Shown: in pieces, positions 25,085-46,447 of the stretch
Position numbering within the stretch: position 1 is the first letter of the stretch
Layout of the letters: every line of letters begins with the position of its first letter
Notes under the pieces: generated by a model
The model's database searches: none
Seen by the model: the letters and a program-made list of their open reading frames with translations, nothing else
What the model was told of the DNA's origin: nothing
Translations under genes and position numbers: made by a program
DNA from: a virus
Direction: 5' to 3' (one strand)
IMG/VR virus record: IMGVR_UViG_3300042541_002760
DNA length: 64,000 nucleotides

Positions 25085-26989
25085 TCAGGCACCAACCTCG
25101 CTGAAGTTCACGCCAGTGCGAGTGGCAATGAAATTCAACTGAATGAAATTGATGCTACGGTTTGGTTTGACATAGATATCGGCAACAAATCTATTGCTGT
25201 CGATCACTTCTCCCGTATTGTTCTTCTCATCGCATACAACCTTGTAGTCGATGATTCCACGCCGAGCCTGTACATCTCGTAAGAATGGCTCAACGAGTGA
25301 ACGGAACTGTGCACGAGTAAATGCATCGTTGAACTCGAACAGGCTGTACTTAGAAGCCGTTGAGATTGCCTTCTCAAGCACGATGAACAGACGGCGAACA
25401 TTGATGCGATCAAATGCCGATGGCTTTTTCTGAGCAGTCTTATCGCCATACAGGATGGTTCCTTCACCCGAGAAGGTTGCAACGGGATTGATACTGTTCT
25501 TATACAGTGTATCTCTTTGAGCCTGTCTTGGTTGGAAAGCCAACTTGATTACGCCACGAATCTGACCACGATTGAATCCTGCGGGGCTGTACCATGGATC
25601 AAAATTTACATCACTACGGGCACACAGTCCTGCAATGTCGCCATTAAGAGGAACAAAACGGTTCTTATCGTTGTAAATGTCGTACATGTACTTGTAACCG
25701 CTGTCAATTACGGTATATGACGAAGAACCGATAGCATTGCGATACTGAACAGCACGATTCAACTTCACCCCATCCGTTTCATTTGGATCCTTATTGGGAA
25801 CAGAAAGGAAGGCAACACAATCCTTACGAGCATCAACAAGATCTTTAAGTGATGGGCCAACAAGATCCGTAACTGCCGCTTCTAAGTTTTCGCTATTTGG
25901 AGTAAAGGTTTTTTCTGGCCCACCGATGAGAAGATTGACATCAACAGTTTCTGCATCAGAGAAAAGAAGGTATCCTTCTGGATCTGAATCATTATCTTGA
26001 CCAAATGCAATCTTCTTGTAATCTACCAGACCCGCAGGACTTCCATTCTTTCCACCTTTAAGTTGCCAAATACCAACACCGAAGGAAACATTTACTCCTG
26101 TGTAACCCGAATCAGTACCAAGTGTTGTGCTGGCATACCAATTCTGTCCTGTAATAGCAGCAGTTCCCCATGGCCCTGTTCCACCCTTCAACAAATCATT
26201 GAATGATGTTAAATTGGTCTTTGGAATTGCTGCAATATATCTAGAAGTACGATTGACCTTATCAACATAGTAGTTGCTTGTTCCGTCTCCTGCGAGTACA
26301 CCTGGTAGGAAGGAAACTGCTTGGAATTTCTCTACGACAGTTCCCTTGGTGCCCGACAAAAGACCATTTCGATCAATGACGGCGATGTGGAATTCATCAT
26401 TCGATCCACCAAGATTATCGATATAAGCCGAAGTAGATGGGATTGCATCAAACTGCTCACCATAAGTCCAATTGCTAAATCTATGACCATATCCAGTGAC
26501 ACCTGCTACACCTGTTATTCCAACTGCCAAACTACCGCAGATTTGAACTTCAAGTGAATTGCCTAGGGCACCAGGATATCGGGCAGCAAATGCGCCGATC
26601 TTGCTAACATCTGCAAATTCGAACCTATCGTCATTTTCGAGCATGGCTGCATCGGAATCCCAAACAACAGCACCGTCCGATAGGGCGGTTGCTCCTGTGT
26701 ATCCAAATCCGTTGGCATTCACCATATCGGCAACCTTGGCACGAACAACCTGAAGATTGTTGCCATATCCAAGGAAGTTGGCGGCGGGGAACCACCACTC
26801 TGCAACCGCATCATCGGGAGTTCCGAAGAGTTGAACGAGGTTATTTTCCGAATCGACAAGGATTCGCTTATTGCATGGGCCCCAATTAAAGAGTCCTACA
26901 ATACCTGCATTGGTGGTGGCAACAGCAGGAACAATCGTTGTCAGATCTTTCTCTGTTACATTTACGCCTGGGGAAAGTTGGAATGCCAT
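25085..26989 (-). CDS. gp18: tail sheath protein
   Basis: LSPGV.V.E.DLT, PWYSPAG.NRG, SAFDRINVRRLF, KP.RSINFIQLNF.ATRTG. Confidence 0.99.
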   Translation of the reverse strand: MAFQLSPGVNVTEKDLTTIVPAVATTNAGIVGLFNWGPCNKRILVDSENNLVQLFGTPDDAVAEWWFPAANFLGYGNNLQVVRAKVADMVNANGFGYTGATALSDGAVVWDSDAAMLENDDRFEFADVSKIGAFAARYPGALGNSLEVQICGSLAVGITGVAGVTGYGHRFSNWTYGEQFDAIPSTSAYIDNLGGSNDEFHIAVIDRNGLLSGTKGTVVEKFQAVSFLPGVLAGDGTSNYYVDKVNRTSRYIAAIPKTNLTSFNDLLKGGTGPWGTAAITGQNWYASTTLGTDSGYTGVNVSFGVGIWQLKGGKNGSPAGLVDYKKIAFGQDNDSDPEGYLLFSDAETVDVNLLIGGPEKTFTPNSENLEAAVTDLVGPSLKDLVDARKDCVAFLSVPNKDPNETDGVKLNRAVQYRNAIGSSSYTVIDSGYKYMYDIYNDKNRFVPLNGDIAGLCARSDVNFDPWYSPAGFNRGQIRGVIKLAFQPRQAQRDTLYKNSINPVATFSGEGTILYGDKTAQKKPSAFDRINVRRLFIVLEKAISTASKYSLFEFNDAFTRAQFRSLVEPFLRDVQARRGIIDYKVVCDEKNNTGEVIDSNRFVADIYVKPNRSINFIQLNFIATRTGVNFSEVGA

Positions 26990-29172: not shown

Positions 29173-30018
29173 TCATAAAGCCCATGGTGTTTCGGGGTAT
29201 TCTCTAATGACTACATTTGCATGTGTTGCACCTGCTCCTGTCCATCCCGCTGTGAGTGATGGTGCATATCCACCCGCAGTAATACCTGCCGCAGCAGAAA
29301 CGCCAATGTCGGCGAATGGCATAATCGTATTGGTTGGTTTGCCATAATCAGCAATGTTGAAGATATTCACATTCGTATTTGTGATAATCGGTGCAGTCTT
29401 AACAGGGCCATACAGATACATCTTGGATACAAACTGTATAGTCGCAAAATTTATCTTACGAGTGCTATAGTCGCCATATGATCCATCATCCCCTTCGGCT
29501 AATGACACCGATGAAAGAATGATCGGAACATCGACATCGACATCCATACCTTCAATTGCTTTGAGGGTAAACACATATTCAGGCGTAAAATATGGCAATA
29601 TCTGTTCAACGATCTGTAGGCAATCTTCCATTCCCTTGGTCATTACACCAACAGTCATGTTCATGTTGTATGGAACTCGTTCATATCTTCTCTTCAGACT
29701 TCCTCTATCTGCGGGGTTATATCCCACGGTCTGCTGAACACTATTCAACTTCCGAGAAGAGTCATACTGCAATGAATTGATCTCAAAGGACATTCGAGGA
29801 AGATATGTCTCCAATCGAATTTGTGATTGATCAAAATCTGTTCCGATTCGATCTAGGCGGCGTAGGAACTTCTGCTGAGGGCCATATGCAATAGGAACAC
29901 GAATGCGTTCCATCTCATTTCCGTTTTGATCATTACGAACAAGATGTATGTCATTGAATAGGGATGCAAATCCCACAACTACTTTTCGAACAGTACCATG
30001 ATAGAAGTATTCAAGCAT
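29173..30018 (-). CDS. gp15: tail sheath stabilizer/completion protein
   Basis: YFYH..RK..V.F..LFNDI, VPIAYGP..KFL, LPRMSFE, QI.EQILPYF.P. Confidence 0.95.
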   Translation of the reverse strand: MLEYFYHGTVRKVVVGFASLFNDIHLVRNDQNGNEMERIRVPIAYGPQQKFLRRLDRIGTDFDQSQIRLETYLPRMSFEINSLQYDSSRKLNSVQQTVGYNPADRGSLKRRYERVPYNMNMTVGVMTKGMEDCLQIVEQILPYFTPEYVFTLKAIEGMDVDVDVPIILSSVSLAEGDDGSYGDYSTRKINFATIQFVSKMYLYGPVKTAPIITNTNVNIFNIADYGKPTNTIMPFADIGVSAAAGITAGGYAPSLTAGWTGAGATHANVVIREYPETPWAL

Positions 30019-30021
30019 GAC

Positions 30022-30915
30022 TTATGGATCTCCAAACGGATTGCTCTCGTCAAAGTTAAAAATGGTGTCTGCTTCTGTTTGAATTGCTTCATTCTTGGCT
30101 TCATCTAGGATGCCCATCGTGTCATCCTTGCTTGTAATTGGTGCATACAGATTTGCACCCGCCTTTGCTATGTAGGCGGTTGCTCCTTTGTTTGTTTCTT
30201 CGATCCAAGTACCAACAACATTGGATAGAGATATTCGGTACGGATTGCTGATGGAGTCATACGAGTAGACCAACGCCCTCGCAGACGCTCCCGCAGTTGC
30301 GCCTGTAAGTGATCCATTCTCGTATTGATATACGCTGTCGCCTTCTGCAAAAGATCCTGATCCATAAATCCCCCCGAGGTTAAGATTGACTTTGAATCCA
30401 GTTTCGTCATTGATTGCATCGATTTCAGGAATACCCGTATCGAAGGTTTCTTCAGAAAACTGGAAGAGTTCGCATGTTATTTGATATGAATATAGTTTTC
30501 CCAATTGATAAAACGGATTCTCATGCTCTACAAACTTAACCTCAAACAATCCCTTGCTTAGTGGGAAATATAACAAATCTCCTTCGAGTGGTCGCCCAAT
30601 TCCTGTTTCTCTTTTGAATCGCTTCTTGGATACAGTGAATTTGACACTATCGCGAATTTCAAACCCAAATTTTGTAAATGTATCCCCACCCTCAAATGCA
30701 GTGGTGGTATCCATATACATCTCAATCATCTTAAAACTTGTAAATCGAGAGTATTTTGATTCCCCAAACAAATCGTCTCTTTTGACTAGATCTCTAGGAA
30801 TATAGAAGATCTCGTTTCCATAAATCTTAATGGCTTCTACCGTGAGATCCTCGATGAGGTTCTCTTCGGGAAGATATGTCTTTGTATTGACTCTGATGTA
30901 TGGATTGAGTGCCAT
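30022..30915 (-). CDS. gp14: neck protein
   Basis: EAIKIYG...YIPR, RP.EGDL.YFP, FEVKFVEHE.PFYQLG, F.ESNPFG. Confidence 0.95.
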   Translation of the reverse strand: MALNPYIRVNTKTYLPEENLIEDLTVEAIKIYGNEIFYIPRDLVKRDDLFGESKYSRFTSFKMIEMYMDTTTAFEGGDTFTKFGFEIRDSVKFTVSKKRFKRETGIGRPLEGDLLYFPLSKGLFEVKFVEHENPFYQLGKLYSYQITCELFQFSEETFDTGIPEIDAINDETGFKVNLNLGGIYGSGSFAEGDSVYQYENGSLTGATAGASARALVYSYDSISNPYRISLSNVVGTWIEETNKGATAYIAKAGANLYAPITSKDDTMGILDEAKNEAIQTEADTIFNFDESNPFGDP

Positions 30916-32115: not shown

Positions 32116-35100
32116 TTATATCGGCAACTGTTGTGCATCACCTCTGAAGGTATCGGACAGCCCTGCGGCATCTGTCATTGGTGAGAATGCTGTATTGGTA
32201 TATGACAGTGTAAACTTAGAATTTAATCCCTGTACTCTTCCAGTTCCTTGCAATTTTGGAGTGGATATCAAAGTAACAGGATCATTAGCCGATATTCCAA
32301 CTGCCCCATACATATCGGGCGTATCCACATTTGAATTGATTGCCAAAATTGCAAACTTATTAAGTTCGGTAGAATTTACTATACTAGTATCACCTCCCTT
32401 AAAAAATCCTGTATCACTGAGAATTCGAGTAAATGGTCTGATTTTTACATTTGAATTCGTTGCAAGAATACCAGGGCCGATGATATCGGTACTGCCAATA
32501 ACGGCAGAAGTATTGGCAATTGAGATCGGGGATCGATTTCCCTTGATGTGTGTCTTACCAATATTCGTCAGATCATGAGAGATACTCAAAGATCCCGCAC
32601 CTTCTGTGATGATTGGGAATGAGCAACGCGAGAAGATACTTCCTGCAACATCAGCATTTGCACCCGAATCTGCTGCAAATCCATAATAGGATCCAGATAC
32701 ACTGCAATGCCCAAGACGGATAGTTCCACCGTTATATGCATGTGCTGCAACAGGATAGTCCAAGAACATACATCCACGAGCCTTGATAGTTCCACCATCA
32801 GTCTGCAATGCTACGGTATTACCATATGAACCGCCTGAGATATATGGAGTCATACTTATATCATTGAGTGCAGCAGTAGTCGAATGGTTGATGAATGCAA
32901 TTCCATCCGATGCAACACCACCAACTGTCCAATCGCCAACAAAGGTATTTGTATTGCGAGTTGTAAACAATGCTCCCGATGGTGAGGTGGTGTGAACAGT
33001 GACTCGATATATGTCAACGGCATTGATATAGTTTGTAAATGTTTTGTTGAGCAGATTCGAGAATACCTGACCGCCTTCGTTATTAACCTTCAGACTGAAA
33101 TACTGACCGCTGATCCCAACAACCTCATGACCACCAATCAACATATTCATCACGCCACCTGTACCGCTTGTAATGCCGTCAAATCCAGATGATACGCCAT
33201 TGGAAGAGGTTACACCCGAAACAAGCGAAAGAGGCGGTAGGAACCGAATGCCACACCCTATGGCAGCAAGCATCGATTGTCCCGTACCGATATTCACCTG
33301 CAAGGTAAATTGTGTGTTACTAGTTGCTCCAAGCGGGGTATAGACAGGGAGGAAAGATATTCCCTTTACAGTCTGTGTAACTATACTATTGTTCTCTGCA
33401 CGGATATAGAGATCTCTACTGATATAATTGTGCCAAGGTTTTGTAAGTGTATAGACTCCATTGGTCAGCACAATATCAAATGCAGATGCAAATGAAGATG
33501 CCGAATCATTAATGACTGACAAATTAAACACAGAAGAATGACTGATTTCCTCATTTGGATTTGTTGGTGTCGTTAGTGGTTTACCATATGCAAAGGTATA
33601 CTCATTCACCGAATTGGCAGGATCTCGATAGTAGAACGGTGCCTTACTTTCGGGGGCAAGATTTGTTGCCTGAAAGGTATTCATCATATATGCAAAGTCT
33701 GTTGGATACAGTGGATCCATTGACAGTTTTGTCGATAGGAAACTTTCATTCGGATTTCCTACAATGCCATCTTTATAGGAAGAACTTGATGCCGCATATA
33801 CTGTAAATGATGGAAGAACATTACCAGCAGCCTGACATTCACATGAAGGGCCAACAGGGCCTTGACCACCTGGAATGCCATTAGGGCCGCGTGGCCCAAC
33901 AGGACCAACAGGCCCGACTCCACCATCTTCACCATCTGCACCATCACATGCAGTAGTTCCAAAAGTGGTATCACTACAATTGACTCCTGTGTATCCAAAG
34001 ACTACTGCATAACATCCATTCGATTTGGTGTTGCTAACAAGATAAATTCCACATCCTGTATTGCCAAGCCCACCCTGAGATCCTGGTGGGCCAATTTCAA
34101 TTCCTGGCCCCTGAAACTGTCTGTGTCGAATGATCCAATTGACTCCAAGATATGGAGGCATCATTGAAATTGGATCATTATCTGCGGTGAATGATGCTAA
34201 TCGTGCAGTTGCATTTATAATACCTGTACTTTGAACAGTCGTATTGAATGCCAAAACACTTGGACTACCCGCATCGAAATCATCAGCACTGTAAATTATA
34301 TTATCATGATCGGGAATTTCATCAGATGCAAGCAGATGCGTGTCATCTCCACCAATTTCTCCCCGCTTGAGGTCTGTCAATCCCGAAGAGTATCCAACAC
34401 CAAAGACAGTTCGTGCGCGTAGATCAGGAATAAAGAATCGATCAGAAGTACATCCCACTGCTTCATTTGCAGTGAGTGATTGAATTGATATCAATGAAGA
34501 GACAGAAACGCCACTGAAGTTAACGGGGGTTGCACCAGGATATGTACTCTTGAATTGGAATCGAACAGTACTTGAATTTGCGGCAGTCAGACTACCAATT
34601 GCAACATCATTAGTTCCACCCCAACCAATCTTATAATCCTTGTGTGTGTCGCTGTTATATGCACTGAGCAAACTATGAGAAGTTGTTCCTGAATAGTCTT
34701 CATGTCCTTCAGCCGAGAAAGAGATAATAACATCTCGACTGACATTTTCAGCAGGGCCTGTTGTGCTTGTTGCAATGCCTGTTACTTTGTATTTGTCATT
34801 GATTATCGAATACAAAGTCGAATAGTCAACATCGTCAATTGGATTATTTCCCGACTTACGAACTGCTGCACCATCGCAAATACGCCATGTGCTAGGAACA
34901 GTATTAAAAGATCCTGCCCATGGAATAATCGATCCAACAGGAGTGAACAGGGACGCAGTTGTTGGTGCCTGTGGTAGAGAATTGATAACAAAACCACTCT
35001 TAGCAGCCGTTGCAACAAGGACACCCTGAATATATGACGATCCATCATATGGTCGATTCGGGCTTAGATTTCCTAAATTTGTTGGCGATAGGTAATAGAC

Positions 35101-35397
35101 CGTACCTGCGGTGAGTGATGTGGCAGTATCATCTATTGGAAGGGCACCGACAAAATCAATCTCTCCTTGATAGATGACTGTTGCTGTTGTATTTGTAACA
35201 GATTCAACAATACCAACTGTCTGTGCAGTATCTAAGTCATCTGCAATTGCGAGTTGAAATCCTGTTGCACCACCTGTGTAAATGACCACAGATCCTGCCA
35301 CAAACGGATGTCCCACGGGAACATTCCATGTGTTGAGGATTCTGCGACCATCGCCGCCACCACCGCCGCCGACAAGAGGGATTGCACTATATGCCAT
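32116..35397 (-). CDS. tail fibre/spike protein with split tail-collar domain, collagen-like stretch and beta-helix-like C-terminus
   Basis: PVGSIIPWAG..W.ICDG ... FFIPDLRAR; GPVGPVGPRGPNGIPGGQGPVGP; C-terminal repeats. Confidence 0.85.
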   Translation of the reverse strand: MAYSAIPLVGGGGGGDGRRILNTWNVPVGHPFVAGSVVIYTGGATGFQLAIADDLDTAQTVGIVESVTNTTATVIYQGEIDFVGALPIDDTATSLTAGTVYYLSPTNLGNLSPNRPYDGSSYIQGVLVATAAKSGFVINSLPQAPTTASLFTPVGSIIPWAGSFNTVPSTWRICDGAAVRKSGNNPIDDVDYSTLYSIINDKYKVTGIATSTTGPAENVSRDVIISFSAEGHEDYSGTTSHSLLSAYNSDTHKDYKIGWGGTNDVAIGSLTAANSSTVRFQFKSTYPGATPVNFSGVSVSSLISIQSLTANEAVGCTSDRFFIPDLRARTVFGVGYSSGLTDLKRGEIGGDDTHLLASDEIPDHDNIIYSADDFDAGSPSVLAFNTTVQSTGIINATARLASFTADNDPISMMPPYLGVNWIIRHRQFQGPGIEIGPPGSQGGLGNTGCGIYLVSNTKSNGCYAVVFGYTGVNCSDTTFGTTACDGADGEDGGVGPVGPVGPRGPNGIPGGQGPVGPSCECQAAGNVLPSFTVYAASSSSYKDGIVGNPNESFLSTKLSMDPLYPTDFAYMMNTFQATNLAPESKAPFYYRDPANSVNEYTFAYGKPLTTPTNPNEEISHSSVFNLSVINDSASSFASAFDIVLTNGVYTLTKPWHNYISRDLYIRAENNSIVTQTVKGISFLPVYTPLGATSNTQFTLQVNIGTGQSMLAAIGCGIRFLPPLSLVSGVTSSNGVSSGFDGITSGTGGVMNMLIGGHEVVGISGQYFSLKVNNEGGQVFSNLLNKTFTNYINAVDIYRVTVHTTSPSGALFTTRNTNTFVGDWTVGGVASDGIAFINHSTTAALNDISMTPYISGGSYGNTVALQTDGGTIKARGCMFLDYPVAAHAYNGGTIRLGHCSVSGSYYGFAADSGANADVAGSIFSRCSFPIITEGAGSLSISHDLTNIGKTHIKGNRSPISIANTSAVIGSTDIIGPGILATNSNVKIRPFTRILSDTGFFKGGDTSIVNSTELNKFAILAINSNVDTPDMYGAVGISANDPVTLISTPKLQGTGRVQGLNSKFTLSYTNTAFSPMTDAAGLSDTFRGDAQQLPI

Positions 35398-35446: not shown

Positions 35447-36655
35447 TCAATTGCCCTCAACGAGTGCATCTGTGGCAAACTTCAAATTCGCTTCGATACG
35501 CTCTTTTTGATCGGCAGGATATTTCCCGTCCTTCAGCAACTGCATGCTTGCAATACGGGATTCTCGGTAGTGTTCCGTCCAAAAGGATGCAATTGAAAAC
35601 TCATCGAGCATTGCCCACTCATAGATTCCTTGTCCTACGAACAGTGCACCTTCGGGATAACGAATCTTTAGCCCTTGCTTGGCGAAGCGGTAGCCCTGAT
35701 CGAAGCGGGAGAATGCACGGCAGAGACGAGCAGCAGCCCAAAGGCTCTCGGCTCTCCACGGAGCCGCCTGATATGCTCTAAAGTACAACTGTAGAATGTT
35801 GTCAACAGGCTTCTCCATGATCTCCATGATTCTACCTGCCTGATACAGGCTATAGAACACTTCCTCGTTCCATCCACCCAAGTCTGCTCTCTTCAAATAC
35901 AATTCAAGAGCCTTCTCCCATTGCTGCGAGTCACGATATGACTGTGCAAGGTAGAAATGGTATCGATTGAAATCTTTTTCTTCTACGGTTCCTGATGCGA
36001 TAGCCTCTTCGAATCGAACAGCATCCTTTTGATACTTTTCAGGATCACTTGATCGTGCCCCATCCTGAATTGGAGTGTTCATGAATCCACGGGCAAAATC
36101 ACGAGTTGCAATTGGCTCATGGCAATCGACATACTCATGAAGAATTCCACGGTAGTAGAATGGCTTCTTATTGCTTGTCATCTGCGGACGGTGATAACGA
36201 GTCTGTCCGAATTGAGCAAAAATATTGTATAGTTCTGCATTGAGGGATTCCTTAAACTTTACAGGATCAAATCCTGGCTCAAACACAAGAATCTCATCTG
36301 CATCGATCATGAATGCATAATCGGTATCTGTCTTCTGTGCAAGTTGAAGTGCTTCGGAACGGTTATGTCCGAAGTTCTGCCATGTGCTCTGATGCAGTTC
36401 ACCCTCGATACCATTGCGATCAAAGAAATCTTTGATCTTCTGCTGTGTACCATCCGTAGAACCTGTGTCTACAATGAGCCATCTGTCGATAAGAGGCAGA
36501 ACAGAAGAAAGACAACGCTCAATAACACGAGCCTCATCCTTTACGATCATGCAGAGCGTAATTGTTTTTACTTTGTTTTGATTGCTCGGGGCAATTGCTG
36601 TTTGTGGAATTGCAACGGGAGCGGTAGCAGTATCGATTGTCATTGTTTCACTCAT
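35447..36655 (-). CDS. GT2 glycosyltransferase with C-terminal TPR repeats
   Basis: TLCMIVKDE..VI.RCL.SV, IVDTGSTDGT, NFG.NR, IDADE, LHE; TPR helices FYLAQSY; start revised to MSETMT (GGAG RBS). Confidence 0.93.
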   Translation of the reverse strand: MSETMTIDTATAPVAIPQTAIAPSNQNKVKTITLCMIVKDEARVIERCLSSVLPLIDRWLIVDTGSTDGTQQKIKDFFDRNGIEGELHQSTWQNFGHNRSEALQLAQKTDTDYAFMIDADEILVFEPGFDPVKFKESLNAELYNIFAQFGQTRYHRPQMTSNKKPFYYRGILHEYVDCHEPIATRDFARGFMNTPIQDGARSSDPEKYQKDAVRFEEAIASGTVEEKDFNRYHFYLAQSYRDSQQWEKALELYLKRADLGGWNEEVFYSLYQAGRIMEIMEKPVDNILQLYFRAYQAAPWRAESLWAAARLCRAFSRFDQGYRFAKQGLKIRYPEGALFVGQGIYEWAMLDEFSIASFWTEHYRESRIASMQLLKDGKYPADQKERIEANLKFATDALVEGN

Positions 36656-36687
36656 ATCAATCTCCATAATAAACGGGGTGTGTGATG

Positions 36688-36694
36688 TATTTAG
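36688..36694 (-). promoter_or_regulatory. T4-type late promoter
   Basis: CTAAATA upstream of glycosyltransferase. Confidence 0.6.
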
Positions 36695-37868: not shown

Positions 37869-40800
37869 TTACATTATACCAATAGCAGTCCAACTAATTC
37901 TTCCTTCAGCAGGCCATCCTGCTGAAGTGTTTGCATTATTTGCAATTACCTTTGCGCCCGTATTTGTGAGATTCGTATACTGACCCATGAAATCTTTGCC
38001 CTGCCAAGATGCATAATTGCCATCCCAACGAACCGTAACGGACATGTTGTATACTTGTGCAAATGCTCTTCGGAAAGTGATGTTTGAATAGATGTTGCCG
38101 CTGGTGCTGGAATCTTCTCCTATGTCGGTTGTTCCCCATTGCATCAAAATGCCACCAGGTAACTCTACCCAACCATCTTCCGCTGCCAAGACATTTCCTT
38201 GGACTGTTGGAGTGCCCGTCTCATACCAAACAAATCCTTCAGGATATCCCACAGCGGTGCTTGGCCCTGTCGTGCTGACATTAAACATCGGTCGGCATGA
38301 AACCTCGCCAGTCGAGTAATCAACGACAACATTACGGCTATCAGCATCTTTCTGATTCTGATCATATAACTTAGTTGCGCCCGTGAGACCGTAGTTGAGG
38401 GCAGGATACATCCGTACACTCGATGTGCTGCTGCCTGTTATCATCAGCGAGTTGCTGCTTGGAAGACTGATACGAGCAGACTCATTAATAAACAGGCGGT
38501 TTCCGACATAGAAATCAGCACTCACACCACCCGCAACGATTGCATCAACGCTGTCTGCACCGCCCAATCCTTGGATGTTGATTGTGCCTGTAACAGTCAA
38601 TGCCCCATGGAATGTATCATCAGCATCGTTGCGGAGAACCTTTGCATTTGTTCGGAACTGTGCGCGGTCGGCATCCGTCAGGGTACGAGCAGCACCACTT
38701 GCAGTCGTATGATTGATGTTATAGCGAATATAAAAGTTGTCGTGATTGTGACCCGTCAGAATCGTGGCTTGGAAACCATTCTTGGCACGGATGATCCAAT
38801 GCATTCCAACATTCGGTGGAATGATGTCGAATGGTGTTGTTCCAGCCCCTGTTCCCAGCAAGCCACCAGTTTCAGTCGTTGAACTTCCACGCGAATTGCT
38901 AAACGAGTCAGTCTGAACAGCCGAATTTAGGGTATGTGTATGTGGTGGGATATTGTTCTCTAGTAGCGTTACTTCAGATTCACCACCAATTGTTCCCAAT
39001 CCGATTGGGGGAGTAATTATTCCACTTCCTGCCAATCCCGTGGCGTTCGAAACGCCGAAGACAGTCCGTCTACGAAGATCGGGCAGGAAGAAAATTGAAC
39101 GACCAACAGCAGTCGCAACAACTCTGCCATACACCTTAAGAGAAACTCCTGCATCTAGTTCTGTGAATGTATTTGTTGTAACAGTAATAGTGCGTGTAGT
39201 TGTATTGACGGAAGATACAATTCCATCTGCGCTTCCCACAGCCCAAACGAACGAAAGTGCATCACCAACAAGAATTCCTCGGGTGTCTCCTTCAATTAAG
39301 AAAGTTGTAGCATTTACAACTTCTGCAATTGCATAATGTGTATTGCTAATAGTTCCGAAAAGGTCATTCCAAAATTCTTTTGCCTTTACCGAACCATCAC
39401 AAAGTAGCCATCCATCAGGGATTCCTGCGGTGATACCTGCAAATGGTTGTACGGCACCAATCGGAGCGGTTGAACGAAGATATACAAGATCAGTAGGAGT
39501 ATCGCCAACAACGATACCTGTATAGTTGCAGACATATCCCTTGTTGATACCCGTGGCGATCAACAGTGCTTTGCGAATTTCTCCAGGTTGAATTTCATAT
39601 GCACCCGAATCGGGATTATCGATGAAACTGCCACCAATTTCAGGATGTAGGAAATATGCATTTCCTGTTACGAGCGGATATAGACTTGCAAATCCACCTG
39701 TTGCAGTCAGTCCCGAAATGAATCCCTTGGTGACAAGACTGAAGCAATTTCCCGTAACACTTTCTACAATTCCAAGTGCCTCTGCATTTGATACCGTATT
39801 TGCCTTTGCAAAAGTGAGTGATCCATCGGTATCAAAGCGAAGAGCATGTCCAACTGCAAATCCGTGATTTGTTTGGCAGAAAGTTTTACGAATTGCATCT
39901 GCTCTTAACCAATCCTCATGAATTCTACCATCACCCAAAGAAACGGGAATAGACCATGGAGTTGCTGTGGTGAGTGAATGAGCACCATCCAACTGATCTG
40001 CATTTAGAAACTTGATCCAATTCGAAACAGGCACCCCTGGGTAAACCGCAGGGCCTGTACTACCCGCAAATACAACACCAAAGGTAGCACCCGCAGCACC
40101 TGTGGGGCTGTGTCGCATCGTCAATTGATTGGCAACATCATATCGAGAAAATGACCCATTTGATCCGTAGTAAGTATAGGAATTGTTTACAGATGCATCG
40201 GGATAGCCAATCGATGCAAACTTAGAAGAAAGAATATAATTATCCGAACCAGTAACACCAAGATTCGTATTTGCAACAAATGCATTCCATGACTGCATAT
40301 CAGGAGATCTGAGATTCCACAAGAATGTCTTGTCACCTGAAGCACCCTTGATATCAATACCTGCGGGAGTTAATATTTCATCACCGAAGAAAGAAGTACC
40401 AATCGTGGGTGTTCCTGTAGTAAGAACTGATGTAATTGCTGAACCCGTAATGACCAACTTTCCACCCAAAATAACATCATCAACACCACCATCGGTGAAT
40501 AGATGAAGTTGAATTGTTCCTGTTGTTCCTGCACCTGCGGTTCGTCCTCCCCAACTACGAACTACACCAATTGTGGTTGCAGTGGCTGGATCAGGAGTAA
40601 GAGTATCGTGATAGAATGCAGTCATACCTGAGGTCTGACCGCCATTAAACGAACCTTCTGTTAATCCCACACCTGTGACCATAAATTCAACATATCGATT
40701 GTATGCCAATTCAATAATCTTGTCTTCAATACGAAGATCATTCGAATCGATATATGAGGTCTGTGCAGACACATTCAGATTACCAACAATATTGACATCG

Positions 40801-41270
40801 CCTTGAATTGTGAAAGATCCATTTCCCGAGCCACCAAAAGTAACAACAGGAGGAAGCATTCGGTGAGCAGGAGTACGCTTAGGCGTTCCTGCCAAACCCT
40901 GACGAGTATCACTCACATCACTAAAAATTACATAATCGCCCATTTGGGGATTTGCAGATGCCCCCGTGCCCAAGTCTTCAAGACGAACAGCATCAATAAT
41001 TATTTTATTGAAGTTATCCGTGAATCCCGCAACACCAATTCCAATACCTGCACCAGGATTTGCAGAAAGAGTTACTACGCCATTGTAGTAACCACCCGAA
41101 CAGCCTGTTTCCTTAATCAATCCACCCGATGTTGCTCCAACATCAACATCAAAGACATTGATGGCACTTGCTGCCTCAATCATCTCATTTGTTCTATCGA
41201 ACCATGTATTAAAGGTGTCGGAAAGAACGAGCGGCTGAATATTGATTAAATCTGATGCGGTACAGGACAT
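37869..41270 (-). CDS. long tail fibre protein with tail-collar domain and C-terminal lectin-like tip
   Basis: SDTF..W...TN start, LNADQLDG, PIGAVQPFAG..GWLLCDG..FFLPDLR, GW..LPGG...QWG..F..AF..W.AIG. Confidence 0.88.
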   Translation of the reverse strand: MSCTASDLINIQPLVLSDTFNTWFDRTNEMIEAASAINVFDVDVGATSGGLIKETGCSGGYYNGVVTLSANPGAGIGIGVAGFTDNFNKIIIDAVRLEDLGTGASANPQMGDYVIFSDVSDTRQGLAGTPKRTPAHRMLPPVVTFGGSGNGSFTIQGDVNIVGNLNVSAQTSYIDSNDLRIEDKIIELAYNRYVEFMVTGVGLTEGSFNGGQTSGMTAFYHDTLTPDPATATTIGVVRSWGGRTAGAGTTGTIQLHLFTDGGVDDVILGGKLVITGSAITSVLTTGTPTIGTSFFGDEILTPAGIDIKGASGDKTFLWNLRSPDMQSWNAFVANTNLGVTGSDNYILSSKFASIGYPDASVNNSYTYYGSNGSFSRYDVANQLTMRHSPTGAAGATFGVVFAGSTGPAVYPGVPVSNWIKFLNADQLDGAHSLTTATPWSIPVSLGDGRIHEDWLRADAIRKTFCQTNHGFAVGHALRFDTDGSLTFAKANTVSNAEALGIVESVTGNCFSLVTKGFISGLTATGGFASLYPLVTGNAYFLHPEIGGSFIDNPDSGAYEIQPGEIRKALLIATGINKGYVCNYTGIVVGDTPTDLVYLRSTAPIGAVQPFAGITAGIPDGWLLCDGSVKAKEFWNDLFGTISNTHYAIAEVVNATTFLIEGDTRGILVGDALSFVWAVGSADGIVSSVNTTTRTITVTTNTFTELDAGVSLKVYGRVVATAVGRSIFFLPDLRRRTVFGVSNATGLAGSGIITPPIGLGTIGGESEVTLLENNIPPHTHTLNSAVQTDSFSNSRGSSTTETGGLLGTGAGTTPFDIIPPNVGMHWIIRAKNGFQATILTGHNHDNFYIRYNINHTTASGAARTLTDADRAQFRTNAKVLRNDADDTFHGALTVTGTINIQGLGGADSVDAIVAGGVSADFYVGNRLFINESARISLPSSNSLMITGSSTSSVRMYPALNYGLTGATKLYDQNQKDADSRNVVVDYSTGEVSCRPMFNVSTTGPSTAVGYPEGFVWYETGTPTVQGNVLAAEDGWVELPGGILMQWGTTDIGEDSSTSGNIYSNITFRRAFAQVYNMSVTVRWDGNYASWQGKDFMGQYTNLTNTGAKVIANNANTSAGWPAEGRISWTAIGIM

Positions 41271-41276
41271 GTGTGA

Positions 41277-41483
41277 TTATCGTTTCTCTATGAGTTTCGA
41301 AACAAGGGATTTTAGGTCAAACAATTCTTGCTCTAACTTATTTATCCGTTCCTTTTGTGCTAAATGTTCGTGCTTTCTTCTCTCATATGCATGTATAGAA
41401 TCATGGTCTGTCGAGAGAATTGCACCTGTTTTGGTGTCTCTCACTAGTCGTTCATTCTTTACCTTGATTCGGTTAGGCATCAT
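41277..41483 (-). CDS. conserved small virion-module protein
   Basis: L.RD..TGAI..TD + coiled coil, typical after DUF4815 gene. Confidence 0.75.
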   Translation of the reverse strand: MMPNRIKVKNERLVRDTKTGAILSTDHDSIHAYERRKHEHLAQKERINKLEQELFDLKSLVSKLIEKR

Positions 41484-44400
41484 GTTGCAATCATCCTTAG
41501 ATTCTTAATACGAGGAACTGCTGCTCCCGTTGAACTTCCAAACATAACTACCTTAATCGAGAATGACTTAAACTTAGTTAGGGTTGTATATCCAATATTT
41601 GTAAAAGATATTTCACGGAAATCAGTATCGGATGAGGATATGCCCCCATCGGTTGTGGTCAATTCCACATAATCAATATAGTCATAGTCAACCTCACCAA
41701 CAGGAATTGGACGAACAAATACTTTCACAGAAGAAGGAACTGCACTGTTTTTCTTGGGATTGCAGAGCGACATCGATACTGTGATGTTTGATGCCTCTAT
41801 ACCCTCTTCAAGAGTTACCTTCTTACTAATATATCTTGCACTTGCTTTAAATGCTGATGCAACATTACTCGGTTCGAGTTCTCCGTTATACTGTCCATCG
41901 CCCTGTGTTGTGTTTGTATTGTTATTGATAGTATTTGATATTGTAACGATGCTCGACTTTTCCCTATCAAATACAGGAGAAACATATCCATCACTACTTG
42001 CACTCATTGTGACATCTACTGATGCAAGTCCTGCCTGTGAAGTTCCTGTCGTGATTGGATGATGTCCATCGGAAGGAGTAATGTTCTTGTTCTTAGATAT
42101 TTGACTGTATGTGTCGGGTTGAACATTTACTACAATTGATGAATATGAAATTACAGATCCTTCGGGAACAGTATCAGCAGCATTTAATCTAAATTCATTA
42201 ATGTTGAATGTACCACTTCCACTAATTGCCTGATTTACAAATCGAATACTTCCACTGCTATCAAATTTGCACAGTTGTAAGCGGAAAGCCAAGGTTTCAT
42301 TATCGCTCTTGACCATCTTGCCCGTATTCTGTGCCTTGAAGATCGATCTCATCATGGGCTGCTTTGTAATATTATACTTCGAGTCCTCTTCACTTGCGAT
42401 CAAGACAGTGCTACCAACTGCTCCTGTAAATACCGAATACTCAGAAGAGTTTGTAAGAATACTAATTGCATACTCTTGACCAGGAAGCAGATATACAGGA
42501 TTACTGAATGGAAAATTTGTTTGATTTGCATTACCTGCCGTGATTAGATCAGCCGTATTGATACTGTCCGAATACAGGGTCGAAGATGCAAAAGGAAGAA
42601 CCTTTGATGGATGTGGATAACCCGATATCGTAGGACGAACCTGCACTGTGATTGGAATAGTTGTAAGTGTTTCCTTGCCACTAAAGTACAGATCAATAGA
42701 CTTTAAGAAAATTCCCTTTGGATACTTGGTAGGATCAACATAGAAAGTCTGTGCAAGTGGTTCGGTATATCCACGAATTTCACCCGAACTTGTAAGAACT
42801 TCAGACAGATTTGAAATAACTCTTGAAGATTTTACTGACTTTCTTCTAGTTTCCGAAAGTCGAGTAGACATATGCCCATCTTCTGCGATAGAATTATAGT
42901 TTCCTTCAATGGCATATACGGCCTCAGCAGACATTGTCCAATTACTTAGATTCTCGATATCGGTACTGTCAATAATTCGAATGACATGGCGACCTACCGA
43001 GAAATTCTGTTCGAATACGCCCGTGGATGCATTTGGGTAGTTGAACAGATAATTGGTCGATGCCTCACCCTTGCTTGTTGTAACCTGACTACCTCCTGTG
43101 CAATAGGGGGTTACATTCATGTCATCACAGAACACATGGAAAGTGGTGTTTGGCTTCAGTCCATTGGCATTGATTGAGATTGTCTTCTGACGAGCAATAG
43201 GAAGTACATCCTTTGCAATCGTCTTATTGTTGATGATCTTCTTCAGGCTTTCAGGAGCAATTGAAGCACTTAGATTATTCAACGAAGTTCCCTCAACCTT
43301 GGCAGTAAGCAACTTATTGGGATTCAACAAATTGGGACGAGTGTTCTTCGAAGTCTGATTTTCTTTACCAAACCAAATAGATTCCCAATCATTAAACCGC
43401 GTACCAAATCCATAACTTGAGTTCTGTTCCCAGTTATCATTCTCGCCATCAACATTCACCAATACCTTAGGCTGCTTTTCAGAATCGTACCAATTGTCGG
43501 TCGATGGGCTGATAGAAAGTGTGCCGAGATAATTGATAACATTAAATGGATTTACTGTAACTGAACCACTTGCAAGAAGATTTGAAATTTCAGGAGAGAG
43601 TGCATAAGTCAAGGTGTATATGCCTGTTGAAGTATTCCCAACAACATTTGATACATTTATTTCACCCGTTAATCCATAAGAGCGAGACACAAAAGATGGA
43701 CGCAATTCATTGTTTTCATAATCAACACTTGCGGCAAACATCGGATCGGTATTGTCTGCAACTGCATGACCCTTAAACTGATCAACAAGAATACCACGCT
43801 TAGGCATTTCAACATCATCGGTGTCCCGAATGCTCTTTGCTTTTGCCTCTTGCTCAAGAAGATTCAGTGTAGTGTAGTATTCAACGGCTTCAATTCGTTT
43901 TTCCAATGCACCAATATCTCGCATGGTATAACGCTTATTTTCAACATAACGAACAGAAGCATCATTGCTGTCAACTGTATAAGGATTTACACGAATACTA
44001 TACAAGGACATTGCATTCGGATCATCCGCAGGAACATCGGCATCCAATGAAGGAATTCCCGAAATGACGGTGAATCTACGATCACGAGTCAATGCAATCT
44101 TATCTGTTCTTGGCAAGAAGTGTGTGTATGTCCAATCGGTCGAATTCGCCGAGGTGTTTGCAGGAACCCATGTTATTGGAATAATATCTCCCGTCAAACT
44201 ACGATCAGGACGGAAATCGATACAGTCGCGAAGATTGTATTGAAGTGCATTTGTTCTGCTTGTATAGGTTGGGATATTTTCATAATCAGGATATGACTGT
44301 GCGGTATACGGCCCAAGCCCAAACTCACCTGTACTGTGTGTATAGTGTTTAAATGTTGCCGAATATGGGCCTGTAACTCCTACTGTACCAGGAATCAAGG

Positions 44401-46447
44401 TAACTCTAGCCCAATCATAATGAGCATCGCGCTGACCCGTATCAAAATCAAAATAGGGTAATAGATTAATTCCTGAACTTGCTCCCATTGACCCCGTAAG
44501 CGACAGCAACTGATCGACATCAGTATATCCATTGAGATACAAGGTATCTGCTGTGCTGCCTCTACCATCGCCTGTGAGGTCTCTGCCAAATGCTCCCGTA
44601 AGAGACTGGCTTATGGTAGAGAGCGTCTTTGTTCTTCGGAAGTCGGTCATGGAGGTACTATTATTTGCAAACTTCTGTGTTGCAATTACATTCAACTTTG
44701 CACCACTGACCGTTCCCGTTACCGTAACTGATAGTTGATTTTCGGAAGCACCCCGTGCAGCAGTTCCTCCCAAGACTTTCCCATTCTGATCAAAAACAAG
44801 AATATCAGCATTTGGCAAAGTAACAATATTGTTTTCAAGAAGGGGAAATTCCATTTTATTAATATCATACGAATCAATAGTAAATGGATAGGTAGATGCA
44901 TTTGCAGTTGTCTTTGCATATGAAACGATTGCATAATCACCAACATTGAATGCAGTCACTCCCGATCCTTCGGGAATTGGATATAAAAGAGATCCTTGAC
45001 TCTGTGCATCGAGAGTAGCACTACCGCCTGTGATTGCAAACAAATGGCTTGTAGTCGATACCTTGCCATTCATAAACACGCGAGTAACATCTGAAAATGC
45101 TCCACCTGTTAAACTGATATCATATATCGATAGATTGTAAACGGTTCCACCATATGGCTCAACTCCACGAATTCTTGCTGTGCCAATTGCAGCACATGCG
45201 GCACCACTTGCACCCGAAGACAATGTCACTAGAGGATGTGTTGCAAGATCTGCGGTAGTTCCAAATGAATCTGGAATTCCTGAAAATACTACCTTTGTAT
45301 ATGGGCCAATAGATCTGTTAAAATCTCTAGTAATAGTTCTTTCATGAGATGCTCCACGGGCACATGGAATATTGAGTTTGGTCTTTCCCTGTGTTTCAAA
45401 TTCATAGCCAAATACATATGCCTTACCAGGAGACAACTCTGCTTTCAATACACTAGTTCCACCCACTGCGGTTGGGCCTTTAAGAACCAATTCAAACGGA
45501 GTTACTGTATAGTTTCCCGATTCGTCATATGTTCGCCGCGCAAGAGTATCTTCAAGCATTGCATAGTCGGGATACTTCTCAACTTTAACAATGTCGCCGT
45601 CAACCACACGCATAAATTCAATAAATCCGACTCTAGAGAAATTGTCCACTGCCGTTGTATCAGTTGCTGTGAACCCCTTCTGTGATGCAAGAAGTTCAAT
45701 CATGAACCGATCTGAACCAGGAGCGGCATAATTGTAGAATCCGAATGCAGGATCGTTCAGTGATGTATCGTCAGTAGAGGTGACAAATGACTTATCAACA
45801 TCAAACCCAATTCTTGTGGTAGGGTTGTTATAGTTGCGAATTTTATTTCCAACAGATCCTGTGAGGGTATATGCACCAATTGATTGGGCATCATTGAGAA
45901 CAAAATATCCCTCGACAAATCGAACGCCACGATCAACCGATGCAACAAGTGCATCACCAATAACATATCCATTTGGCCCTGTTACGGAAGCAGTTATTCC
46001 TGTACCGTTTGCGGCGGTCGCAGAAAGAATATTATTGATTGCAAATGTTGCACCGCCTTCAGTATATTCAAAGAAAAGAACACTTGTATTTGATTCACTA
46101 CTATTTGGATATACTCCTTCGGCATGAACAACACGGGCACTAGCCTTACCCGATGATCCAATGACCGTTCCAATGAAATCCGAATATCCCACCGAAGATC
46201 CAAGATTTACTTTCACATATTTTACACGATTTTCACTGATCTGCCCGTCAAGAACAATGCTGCCTTCTTCAAATATATGAGAACCAAGACGCTCGACTTG
46301 ATTCTGTAGAAGTGTCTGTATCTGTGTCAGTTCTCGTGCCTGAACACCATATCCAGGACGGAACATGAGACGAAGAAACTTCTTGTCCTCGCTAAAATCG
46401 TCATAGTAAGGATCAACATTAAACAAACTTGGGTCGTATGATGGCAT
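41480..46447 (-). CDS. large virion structural protein (DUF4815/VrlC-like)
   Basis: PYYDDF...K.F...FRPG..VQARELTQ.Q..LQNQ, APG.DR, LARRTYDESGNY.V.PF, KRYTMRDIG.LE.RI. Confidence 0.92.
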   Translation of the reverse strand: MPSYDPSLFNVDPYYDDFSEDKKFLRLMFRPGYGVQARELTQIQTLLQNQVERLGSHIFEEGSIVLDGQISENRVKYVKVNLGSSVGYSDFIGTVIGSSGKASARVVHAEGVYPNSSESNTSVLFFEYTEGGATFAINNILSATAANGTGITASVTGPNGYVIGDALVASVDRGVRFVEGYFVLNDAQSIGAYTLTGSVGNKIRNYNNPTTRIGFDVDKSFVTSTDDTSLNDPAFGFYNYAAPGSDRFMIELLASQKGFTATDTTAVDNFSRVGFIEFMRVVDGDIVKVEKYPDYAMLEDTLARRTYDESGNYTVTPFELVLKGPTAVGGTSVLKAELSPGKAYVFGYEFETQGKTKLNIPCARGASHERTITRDFNRSIGPYTKVVFSGIPDSFGTTADLATHPLVTLSSGASGAACAAIGTARIRGVEPYGGTVYNLSIYDISLTGGAFSDVTRVFMNGKVSTTSHLFAITGGSATLDAQSQGSLLYPIPEGSGVTAFNVGDYAIVSYAKTTANASTYPFTIDSYDINKMEFPLLENNIVTLPNADILVFDQNGKVLGGTAARGASENQLSVTVTGTVSGAKLNVIATQKFANNSTSMTDFRRTKTLSTISQSLTGAFGRDLTGDGRGSTADTLYLNGYTDVDQLLSLTGSMGASSGINLLPYFDFDTGQRDAHYDWARVTLIPGTVGVTGPYSATFKHYTHSTGEFGLGPYTAQSYPDYENIPTYTSRTNALQYNLRDCIDFRPDRSLTGDIIPITWVPANTSANSTDWTYTHFLPRTDKIALTRDRRFTVISGIPSLDADVPADDPNAMSLYSIRVNPYTVDSNDASVRYVENKRYTMRDIGALEKRIEAVEYYTTLNLLEQEAKAKSIRDTDDVEMPKRGILVDQFKGHAVADNTDPMFAASVDYENNELRPSFVSRSYGLTGEINVSNVVGNTSTGIYTLTYALSPEISNLLASGSVTVNPFNVINYLGTLSISPSTDNWYDSEKQPKVLVNVDGENDNWEQNSSYGFGTRFNDWESIWFGKENQTSKNTRPNLLNPNKLLTAKVEGTSLNNLSASIAPESLKKIINNKTIAKDVLPIARQKTISINANGLKPNTTFHVFCDDMNVTPYCTGGSQVTTSKGEASTNYLFNYPNASTGVFEQNFSVGRHVIRIIDSTDIENLSNWTMSAEAVYAIEGNYNSIAEDGHMSTRLSETRRKSVKSSRVISNLSEVLTSSGEIRGYTEPLAQTFYVDPTKYPKGIFLKSIDLYFSGKETLTTIPITVQVRPTISGYPHPSKVLPFASSTLYSDSINTADLITAGNANQTNFPFSNPVYLLPGQEYAISILTNSSEYSVFTGAVGSTVLIASEEDSKYNITKQPMMRSIFKAQNTGKMVKSDNETLAFRLQLCKFDSSGSIRFVNQAISGSGTFNINEFRLNAADTVPEGSVISYSSIVVNVQPDTYSQISKNKNITPSDGHHPITTGTSQAGLASVDVTMSASSDGYVSPVFDREKSSIVTISNTINNNTNTTQGDGQYNGELEPSNVASAFKASARYISKKVTLEEGIEASNITVSMSLCNPKKNSAVPSSVKVFVRPIPVGEVDYDYIDYVELTTTDGGISSSDTDFREISFTNIGYTTLTKFKSFSIKVVMFGSSTGAAVPRIKNLRMIAT

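Follow-up and report, generated by a model that had tools for sequence, protein, structure and literature searches.

In the window, that is, the whole stretch of 64,000 nucleotides analysed here from an uncultured T4-like phage (IMG/VR record IMGVR_UViG_3300042541_002760), a gene for a predicted glycosyltransferase (GT) lies on the minus strand between two genes encoding fibre proteins, both with Collar domains. The open reading frame extends over 35447-36709, where it is open to a GTG, but the likely start is the ATG at 36655, which is preceded by GGAG and gives a protein of 402 aa. The features discussed here are collected in Table 1. The octamer CTAAATAC, which resembles a late promoter, occurs 5 times in the window against 1.4 expected, always on the minus strand and directly upstream of late genes, and the shorter TAAATA also precedes gp23, gp22, gp19, gp18, gp13 and the fibre gene. 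By promoter context and by position within the structural module, the gene is a T4-like late gene, its late expression being inferred from sequence alone. No near-identical phage was found in the cultured-phage collection.

Table 1. Features of the window related to the predicted glycosyltransferase and to the G-x-T motif.
Coordinates	Strand	Feature	Motif sites and context
35447..36655	-	SgtA/SunS-like GT-A + TPR glycosyltransferase (predicted)	
36687..36694	-	Late-promoter-like CTAAATAC	32 nt upstream of the GT start codon
36723..37064	-	113-aa LtfC/phrog_1084-like protein	Immediately upstream of the GT; 4 G.T[GA] sites against 0.4 G.T[GAS] expected
32116..35397	-	Fibre protein (1093 aa)	Downstream of the GT; 10 G.T[GAS] sites, 4 of them G.T[GA]; Thr-free collagen-like tract at residues 486-518
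37869..41270	-	Fibre protein (1133 aa)	Upstream of the GT; 10 G.T[GAS] sites, 8 of them G.T[GA]
25085..26989	-	gp18 tail sheath	6 sites (residues 96-298)
29173..30915	-	gp15 and gp14 neck proteins	2 sites each, in their variable C-terminal regions
17192..18538	-	gp23 major capsid protein	3 sites
20847..21233	-	128-aa late protein of unknown role	4 sites against 0.5 expected
41480..48780	-	DUF4815 1655-aa protein and gp8-like wedge protein	11 G.T[GAS] sites and 7 sites, respectively
10140..11168	+	GDP-mannose 4,6-dehydratase (gmd)	CTAAATA 37 nt upstream; possible sugar-donor supply, link to the GT inferred only

From a structural perspective, the protein belongs to glycosyltransferase family 2 with a GT-A fold, since Pfam GT2 (PF00535) covers residues 34-122 with 35.4 bits against a cut-off of 23.3, and the structural model (pLDDT 89) shows alternating strands and helices over residues 32-195, as in a Rossmann-like beta/alpha core, followed by an all-helical, TPR-like region of repeats at residues 207-399, with neither a transmembrane segment nor a signal peptide. 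Pfam TPR families hit both close and distant homologues. The DxD metal and nucleotide-sugar binding motif, D118-A-D120, is invariant in an alignment of 15 homologues and aligns with the D-A-D of SunS. A Foldseek search retrieved as top hits the glycocin S/O-glycosyltransferases SunS and ThuS (PDB 7msn, 7msk), matching over the full length at E 1e-15 to 1e-14 (about 390 aligned columns), 8 orders of magnitude better than the teichoic-acid or polysaccharide GT2s, and a phmmer search against PDB gave GmaR, SunS and ThuS as the top four hits. SunS and ThuS act on residues in Gly-rich flexible loops of peptides. However, their identity to the phage protein is only 14-16%, the score against the SunS family model TIGR04195 is 30.5 against a cut-off of 350, so that the protein shares the fold but is not a member of that family, no glycocin precursor or bacteriocin context is present, and the likely target residue is Thr rather than Cys. 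Listeria GmaR (PDB 22ao), a flagellin O-GlcNAc transferase, is the best PDB sequence match (E 2.9e-8) and is likewise a GT2+TPR enzyme that O-glycosylates a surface filament protein, although only the catalytic domain aligns, its acceptor is a flagellin without a G-x-T sequon, and GmaR is also an anti-repressor of MogR.

The initial annotation had described a GT2-TPR gene with its own late promoter and a richness of virion proteins in G-x-T-(G/A/S), and this observation is confirmed: every motif string that it listed is present, and the end coordinate that it gave, 36694, is the end of the promoter-like motif. The count in virion versus non-virion proteins, which had been proposed as a test, gave 52 G.T[GAS] sites against 19.1 expected in virion proteins (z 7.8) and 5 against 4.9 in non-virion proteins, although gp26, regarded as non-virion by the initial annotation, carries one G.T[GA] site plus one G.TS site and TerS carries one G.T[GA] site. 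When virion and late-unknown proteins are considered together, G.T[GA] occurs 50 times against 16.6 expected (z 8.5), about a 3-fold enrichment, and with shuffling inside 8-residue windows the excess is still 2.5-fold (z 7.1). Reversed and permuted motifs are not enriched, so that the excess depends on residue order and an explanation by composition or low complexity is excluded. Moreover, G.TA and G.TG rank first and second among about 4,300 gapped patterns of the type a.bc. Codon usage at the sites mirrors the background, which rules out a motif acting at the DNA level, and position x is never D, E or K in the 50 sites. An artefact of collagen repeats was also rejected, since the window has only 4 tandem G-x-T doublets and the excess persists when collagen tracts are masked.

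The sites fall in many different alignment columns, confined to variable regions where reference phages have gaps, and in gp18 all six lie in coil, most of them in low-confidence (low-pLDDT) loops of the variable N-terminal half. In contrast, the portal, tube, gp13, gp6, gp7-like, gp5 and gp53 proteins have 0-1 G.T[GAS] sites each. A search of the Protein Atlas with the two small motif-rich proteins of 113 and 128 aa returned only "hypothetical viral protein".

The excess was compared among T4-like phages with and without the GT. With collagen tracts masked, the observed to expected ratio is 4.5-fold (208 against 46.5) in clade A, the uncultured T4-like clade of the window, and 4.1-fold (73 against 18) in a further GT-bearing uncultured clade, B-ii, compared with 1.4-fold (27 against 19) in GT-less cultured phages. 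In fact, six GT-less T4-like phages (T4, HTVC008M, DLP_6, Melnitz, Cr30 and S-SSM4) show no comparable excess (pooled ratio about 1.1, with 0.69 for T4 and 1.08 for HTVC008M), so that a generic property of T4-like virions was rejected, and a profile search found no GT in five complete reference genomes. G.TG is the top pattern in B-ii and is not among the 8 top-ranked patterns listed for the reference phages. The gene is kept in 38 of 38 clade-A loci that span the slot, while the two long B-ii records carry it elsewhere in the genome, next to sugar-nucleotide genes and a collagen gene; three B-ii records without a detectable GT are fragments (16-47% complete) and are uninformative. This co-occurrence is not clean. 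In G009, a complete jumbo phage, the GT sits with four collagen-like neighbours but the dispersed motif is not enriched (21 against 16.2), and therefore the GT is not sufficient for the excess and collagen-like fibres alone could be its substrates. Furthermore, all GT-bearing T4-likes may form one clade: an AU test on the TerL tree (p 0.39) did not reject a single origin, a reading of two independent gains was abandoned on this basis, and the co-occurrence may reflect a single event.

An indication of the acceptor comes from the genomic neighbourhood of the family. GT homologues lie next to genes of collagen-like (G-x-T)n proteins in 39-49 of 80 bacterial loci, 26 of them within 500 bp, and in several phages; among the relatives designated here Tunturi_5, L147, L148, L159 and G001, all have such a neighbour, which in the first four is a (GPT/GAT)n protein. 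All five GT-bearing T4-like records encode collagen proteins, whereas in the window the collagen-like tract of the adjacent fibre lacks Thr. In Tunturi_5 the Pfam sheath family found no sheath, and in the megaphage neighbourhoods of GT homologues (LR756501 and LR745206) no structural genes were recognised, so that the latter were uninformative. The closest precedent, and a better one than those named in the initial annotation, is SgtA of Clostridioides difficile, which acts on the spore exosporium collagen-like glycoprotein BclA3 and adds beta-O-GlcNAc to Thr of GPT collagen repeats in vitro (PMC7157674). SgtA and the phage protein both have an N-terminal GT-A domain and C-terminal TPR repeats, are about 360-400 aa long and are soluble (for the phage protein, as predicted), and the inferred acceptor of the latter is likewise Thr in G-x-T(-G). 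The resemblance to SgtA rests on architecture and on the N-terminal I-[ST]-L-C-M-I motif, as judged from the first 9 residues, which can be read from a primer sequence (PMC7157674), while Clostridium homologues next to collagen genes match at 25-28% identity. The phage gene, in turn, is a late gene in a T4-like structural module, and its candidate acceptors are isolated single sites dispersed over many non-collagen virion proteins.

Taken together, these data are best explained, with a confidence only slightly better than even, by a soluble, late-expressed, SgtA-like protein O-glycosyltransferase with a GT-A catalytic domain carrying the DxD motif and a TPR domain that would bind the acceptor. 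In this view, the ancestral acceptor is Thr in G-x-T-G, as found in collagen-like fibre proteins, and in this T4-like clade the same minimal acceptor, G-x-T-[G/A] with an uncharged x, has been scattered over flexible variable loops of sheath, neck, capsid, wedge, fibre and small late proteins, which the enzyme would decorate with a sugar in the cytoplasm during assembly, a sugar that other phage glycan genes might extend. The analysis establishes the class and fold of the enzyme, its late-promoter-like context, the motif excess and its specificity, the location of the sites in loops, the co-occurrence by lineage and the adjacency of the family to G-x-T repeat genes. On the other hand, the transfer of a sugar to Thr, the modification of any dispersed site, the exposure of the sites in the assembled virion, the identity of the sugar and the biological role (shielding, stability or adhesion) are inferred, in the absence of biochemical evidence. 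The interpretation of the initial annotation, namely that the phage glycosylates Thr in a GxT sequon over its whole surface, possibly with gmd-derived sugars and a methyltransferase, as shielding or host mimicry, is thus supported only in part. The kinship with protein-targeting GT2-TPR enzymes and the protein-level motif excess in loops hold, as does the association with the GT in the T4-like clades sampled; coverage of the whole surface, the supply of sugar by gmd and a function in shielding or mimicry remain conjectural, as does the methyltransferase, for which 7486-8259 has no Pfam hit.

Other explanations must be weighed against this one. The most serious, although doubtful, is that the GT glycosylates only collagen-like (G-x-T)n fibre proteins, as SgtA does with BclA3, and that the dispersed excess is a separate lineage trait, for example a favoured loop or turn sequence or short collagen-derived insertions, not modified to any meaningful extent. 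The jumbo phage G009, the collagen-like gene as the conserved genomic partner of the family, the collagen proteins of all five GT-bearing T4-like records and the possible single origin of these phages all favour it. However, an enzyme accepting short GPT peptides in vitro (PMC7157674) would be expected to act on exposed G-x-T-G loops as well, and if this were harmful the motif should be depleted and not 3- to 4.5-fold enriched; moreover, the excess is order-specific, restricted to virion proteins and maintained with positional turnover across about 50% TerL divergence, which points to selection on the motif itself.

It is quite unlikely that the GT acts instead on a host or other non-virion target, such as host pilin, flagellin, a surface protein or a polysaccharide, for superinfection exclusion or host takeover, with an unrelated motif excess. 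GmaR does glycosylate a host flagellin, GT2 enzymes often act on glycans and JGI names the homologues "involved in cell wall biosynthesis", but the late-promoter-like context inside the fibre cluster, the retention of the gene as a core gene of the structural module, the full-length fold match to peptide glycosyltransferases rather than polymer GT2s and the adjacency of the family to G-x-T repeat genes argue against it. Least likely of all is a statistical or phylogenetic artefact of composition, shared ancestry or choice of motif. The motif was indeed chosen after looking at the data, homologous proteins are not independent samples and the expected counts are small for single proteins, yet an unbiased scan of 4,000-5,000 patterns puts G.TG and G.TA on top in the window, in other clade-A members and in clade B-ii but not in the reference phages, local shuffles keep z above 7, and sites occupying different columns in different members are not simply inherited.

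Among tailed phages, virion glycosylation is established only for mycobacteriophages, in which phage-encoded glycosyltransferases decorate capsid and tail proteins (Freeman et al., 2023, cited in PMC12619734 and PMC12801897). Those glycans sit at the C-termini of the capsid and tail-tube subunits of actinobacteriophage siphoviruses and no sequon was reported, whereas here the phage is a T4-like myovirus, the enzyme family is unrelated as far as tested and the candidate sequon is an internal loop motif. A bolder reading, about as likely as not, is that a widespread, uncultured clade of aquatic T4-like phages coats its virion (sheath, neck, capsid, baseplate and fibres) with O-glycans placed at G-x-T-[G/A] by a single core late SgtA-like enzyme, with sequons that turn over in surface loops much as glycan-shield sites do in animal viruses; this would be the first sequon-directed virion glycosylation in phages and the first outside actinobacteriophages.

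If the sequon reading is right, glycosylated virions could be predicted directly from sequence, and one soluble GT with a 4-residue loop motif would form a compact enzyme-plus-tag pair that might be usable for glyco-engineering of proteins and phage particles. Independently of the phage question, the analysis assigns a likely acceptor, collagen-like G-x-T repeats, to a large family of GT2-TPR genes found across Bacillota, Actinomycetota, Pseudomonadota, Chloroflexota and phages, which are annotated only generically where a source names them at all. For the phages themselves, the sequon reading, if right, would show that a large environmental group of T4-like phages alters its particle surface, with consequences for adsorption, aggregation, stability, grazing and immune or defence recognition.

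The region from about 13.3 to 60.5 kb carries, on the minus strand, the structural module of an uncultured T4-like myovirus. Its gene order is T4-like: gp53, gp48, gp5, PAAR, gp25, gp6, gp7-like, gp8-like, a gene for a 1655-aa DUF4815 protein, a fiber gene, two small genes, the glycosyltransferase (GT) gene, a second fiber gene, gp13, gp14, gp15, gp16, gp17, gp18, gp19, gp20, five small genes, gp21, gp22, and gp23. Downstream of gp23, two tandem tail-tube-like paralogs (phrog_45, 183 and 181 aa) are found in addition to gp19, while some clade relatives (loci L019 and L149) carry two tandem full-length sheath (gp18) genes, each 45-56% identical to the gp18 of the window. The window also encodes unusual cargo, namely a prepilin-type N-methylation-motif protein, a dockerin-domain protein and a 475-aa protease-like protein (phrog_3677). 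No close DNA relative was found among cultured phages. On the basis of the sheath protein, the nearest cultured phages are Pelagibacter phage HTVC008M, Stenotrophomonas phage DLP_6, Methylophilales phage Melnitz, Caulobacter phage Cr30 and cyanophages, at 42-49% identity. The coordinates of the features discussed are collected in the following table.

Positions of the features in the window and in related loci
Feature	Location	Strand	Remark
GT open reading frame	35447-36709	-	likely start at the ATG at 36655, behind a GGAG, giving 402 aa
CTAAATAC matches	17108-17115, 25056-25063, 36687-36694, 48787-48794, 60522-60529	-	
Tandem tail-tube-like paralogs	16006-16557 and 16557-17102	-	phrog_45
gp19	24413-25039		
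Small terminase (TerS)	28715-29161	-	G-S-T-A site at residue 124
Fiber downstream of the GT	32116-35397	-	collagen-like tracts at residues 436-450 and 486-518
Prepilin-type N-methylation-motif, dockerin-domain and protease-like proteins	4052-5194, 5757-6830, 14166-15593		
Tandem sheath genes in clade relatives	L019:7224-10849 and L149:8879-12544		
Clustered GT-TPR paralogs on viral contigs	L155:2748-9673 and L158:1580-16248		
GT cassettes of the distant T4-like clade	L084 (G001:41557-45678) and L083 (G002:29034-33137)		
Closest cellular GT homolog	L160 (NZ_CP170152 3226549-3239673)		Bradyrhizobium sp. Pha-3

The GT product matches Pfam GT2 above the cut-off at residues 34-122, and in a 15-sequence alignment D118-A-D120 is invariant. 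The AlphaFold model (pLDDT 89, pTM 0.81) predicts a disordered N-terminus of 26 residues, a GT-A domain at residues 32-195 and eleven helices at residues 207-399, whereas Pfam TPR families hit both close and distant homologs. By fold, the best solved matches are the glycocin glycosyltransferases SunS and ThuS over the full length (E 4e-15 to 6e-14), followed by the wall-teichoic-acid GT2s RmlT, TarP and TarS, which start at E 4e-7; by sequence, the four best PDB hits are GmaR, SunS (twice) and ThuS. The SunS equivalog model of NCBIfam is matched far below its cut-off (30.5 against 350 bits), and therefore the protein shares the architecture but is not a member of the SunS family. The protein is common in metagenomes, where 6,053 hits were scored, many at 70-98% identity, on contigs up to 177 kb. 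Furthermore, two viral contigs (L155 and L158) hold 3-5 GT-TPR paralogs clustered together, some of which are much longer (up to 1058 aa), suggesting fused or expanded forms of the family.

With regard to the expression context, CTAAATAC occurs 5 times in the window against 1.4 expected, and all five matches are on the minus strand and immediately upstream of late genes, that is, a tube paralog, gp19, the GT, the gp8-like gene and the 385-aa gene. The core TAAATA, which occurs 25 times on the minus strand and 10 times on the plus strand, also precedes gp23, gp22, gp18, gp13, the 1093-aa fiber gene and the 113-aa gene and, on the plus strand, gmd. CTAAATAC thus behaves as the late-promoter core of this phage and fits the T4-type late promoter, which is TATAAATA in T4, although the timing of expression itself is inferred.

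All the motif strings that the initial annotation had listed in the virion proteins are present, and counting the motif in virion and non-virion proteins, a check that had been set beforehand, confirmed the observation. In fact, G.T[GAS] occurs 52 times in virion proteins against 19.1 expected from per-protein shuffles (z 7.8) and 13 times against 5.6 in late proteins of unknown role, but only 5 times against 4.9 in non-virion proteins. For G.T[GA] in virion plus late-unknown proteins, 50 sites were observed against 16.6 expected (z 8.5), and shuffling inside windows of 30, 15 or 8 residues leaves the observed/expected ratio (O/E) at 2.9, 2.8 and 2.5, respectively (z at least 7). The control motifs [GA]T.G, T.G[GA], GT.[GA], G..T[GA], A.T[GA], G.A[GA], G.G[GA] and G.N[GA] are flat or weak, while G.S[GA] is 1.5-fold and S.T[GA] 1.9-fold enriched. 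Moreover, in an unbiased scan of all a.bc patterns with at least 1 expected occurrence, G.TA and G.TG rank first and second of 4,344. The codons at the sites follow background usage, so the signal is at the protein level; position x is A, L, I, G, S, T, V or Y, and never D, E or K. Only four sites are tandem G-x-T doublets. The fiber downstream of the GT has collagen-like G-x-y tracts of up to 11 triplets, but the long one (residues 486-518) has no Thr at all and the short one has a single Thr, in contrast with the G-x-T arrays that flank GT homologs elsewhere. The excess is uneven among the virion proteins, being strong in gp18, gp15, gp14, gp23, the gp8-like protein, DUF4815, both fibers and the 113-aa and 128-aa proteins, and absent from the portal, tube, gp13, gp6, gp7-like protein, gp5, gp48 and gp53.

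The location of the sites was analyzed in alignments of 69-77 gp14 and gp15 orthologs and of 28 gp18 orthologs, in which the motif occupies 14, about 25 and more than 40 different columns, respectively. Nearly all of these columns are in variable regions (gp14 181-264, gp15 212-273, gp18 96-334), where T4, HTVC008M and the other reference phages have gaps or unrelated residues, and no single site is universal. The number of sites is therefore kept while their positions turn over. In the gp18 model (pLDDT 72) all six sites are in DSSP coil; those at 157-166 and 295-298 lie inside loops with pLDDT below 50, and those at 96-102 border another such loop. In T4 gp18 this N-terminal half forms the outer, protease-exposed domains, so that exposure of the sites may be supposed only by analogy.

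The excess is not a generic feature of T4-like virions. The virion proteins of T4 show 6 sites against 8.6 expected and those of HTVC008M 13 against 12. Across all ORFs of the structural regions of six cultured T4-like phages the O/E is 0.68-2.07 (pooled about 1.06), while the same measure for the window is 2.68; for the seven shared core proteins, the window has 13 sites against 2.4, and the reference phages 0-6 against about 2. None of the six cultured phages was found to encode the GT, either by tblastn or, for five complete genomes, by a profile search.

Among uncultured T4-like phages, 80 IMG/VR loci around gp14 all show an O/E of about 2-13 in virion orthologs, apart from one 737-aa fragment with none. 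On a TerL tree these loci fall into two groups, clade A, which contains the window and in which the GT sits in the fiber slot in 38 of 38 loci spanning it, and clade B-ii, which has no GT near gp14. Nevertheless, the two long B-ii records (157 and 128 kb) carry a full-length GT homolog (41-42% identity, E 1e-72) elsewhere in the genome, flanked by an SDR sugar epimerase/dehydratase, a UDP-GlcNAc 2-epimerase or a methyltransferase and, in one of these records, directly beside a collagen-repeat gene; the three B-ii records without the GT are only 16-47% complete. In the distant T4-like clade the GT lies in a cassette, which in locus L084 comprises an SDR epimerase/dehydratase, a UDP-GlcNAc 2-epimerase C-terminal part and a collagen-repeat gene, and in locus L083 an SDR, a methyltransferase and a dUTPase-like gene. 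The pooled counts obtained with collagen tracts masked are reported in the following table. The G-S-T-A site of the small terminase, which is not a virion protein, recurs in distant clade-A members (L147, L148, and L149) and accounts for much of the small non-virion excess in clade A.

Observed against expected motif counts, pooled by group, with collagen tracts masked
Group	Virion orthologs	O/E (virion)	Non-virion orthologs
Clade A representatives	208 against 46.5	4.5	10 against 3.4
Clade B-ii	73 against 18.0	4.1	1 against 3.0
Reference phages	27 against 19.0	1.4	5 against 3.4

G.TG is the top pattern of 4,706 in B-ii (z 11.5), G.TG and G.TA are the top two in other clade-A members, and neither is among the 8 top-ranked patterns listed for the reference phages. 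However, although the TerL tree places B-ii with the GT-less cultured phages (SH-aLRT 86), an AU test does not reject a single clade of all GT-bearing rows (p 0.39), and within T4-like phages the association may therefore represent one evolutionary event.

As for the possible acceptors of this enzyme family, GT homologs in other phages lie next to proteins built of (GPT/GAT/GLT)n collagen-like repeats. This is the case of Tunturiibacter phage Tunturi_5, whose tail fiber has 66 sites, of the loci L147 and L148, and of the complete 211-kb phage G009 (locus L159), with four such neighbors. Among 80 bacterial loci with a homolog (Bradyrhizobium, Streptomyces, Bacillus, Clostridium, Paenibacillus, Chloroflexia, Hydrogenedentota and others), 49 have a G-x-T-rich ORF within 6 kb; by a stricter collagen criterion the count is 39, of which 26 lie within 500 bp, and the five examples that were read are true (G-x-T)n proteins. 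The closest cellular homolog (48% identity), from Bradyrhizobium sp. Pha-3, lies near an open frame of at least 982 aa, cut by the locus end, with 223 G-x-T-[G/A] sites, which may be a prophage or a BclA-like surface fiber in an alphaproteobacterium. The biochemistry is provided by the literature, since Clostridioides difficile SgtA, a 358-aa GT-A plus TPR enzyme encoded next to bclA3, adds beta-O-GlcNAc to Thr residues of GPT collagen-repeat peptides in vitro and also accepts Ser (PMC7157674). Its N-terminus, read from the cloning primer, is M-I-T-I-S-L-C-M-I, resembling the invariant I-T-L-C-M-I-V-K of the present family. SgtA is thus the closest characterized analog, and G-x-T-G is exactly its acceptor context.

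The interpretation of the initial annotation, according to which the phage glycosylates Thr in a GxT sequon over its whole surface, is partly supported. What the analysis shows is the architecture of the enzyme, the motif excess with its loop location, and the recurrence of collagen-like (G-x-T)n genes beside family members, whereas late timing and glycosylation of the dispersed sites are inferred. In phage G009 the GT and its collagen-like neighbors are present, but outside the collagen tracts the motif is not enriched (21 against 16.2) and the sheath and capsid proteins have no sites; the GT is therefore not sufficient for the dispersed excess. The dispersed sites are a specific elaboration of the T4-like clades or, alternatively, they are unrelated to the enzyme. 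Against the latter view, an enzyme that accepts short peptides should also act on exposed G-x-T-G loops, and the motif is enriched rather than avoided, only in virion proteins and with turnover. On balance, the reading in which the enzyme acts on the dispersed sites is held to be somewhat more likely than not. gmd, 25 kb away behind a late-promoter-like motif, was mentioned by the initial annotation as a possible sugar source; on present evidence this link remains conjectural, and shielding, stability, adhesion or mimicry can be considered only as possible roles of a putative glycan.

A literature search found virion glycosylation only for mycobacteriophages (Freeman 2023, as cited in PMC12619734 and PMC12801897), and nothing on T4-like phages or on a phage sequon. 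While the enzyme type and the collagen-repeat acceptor are already known, the phage setting and the dispersed candidate sequon are new.
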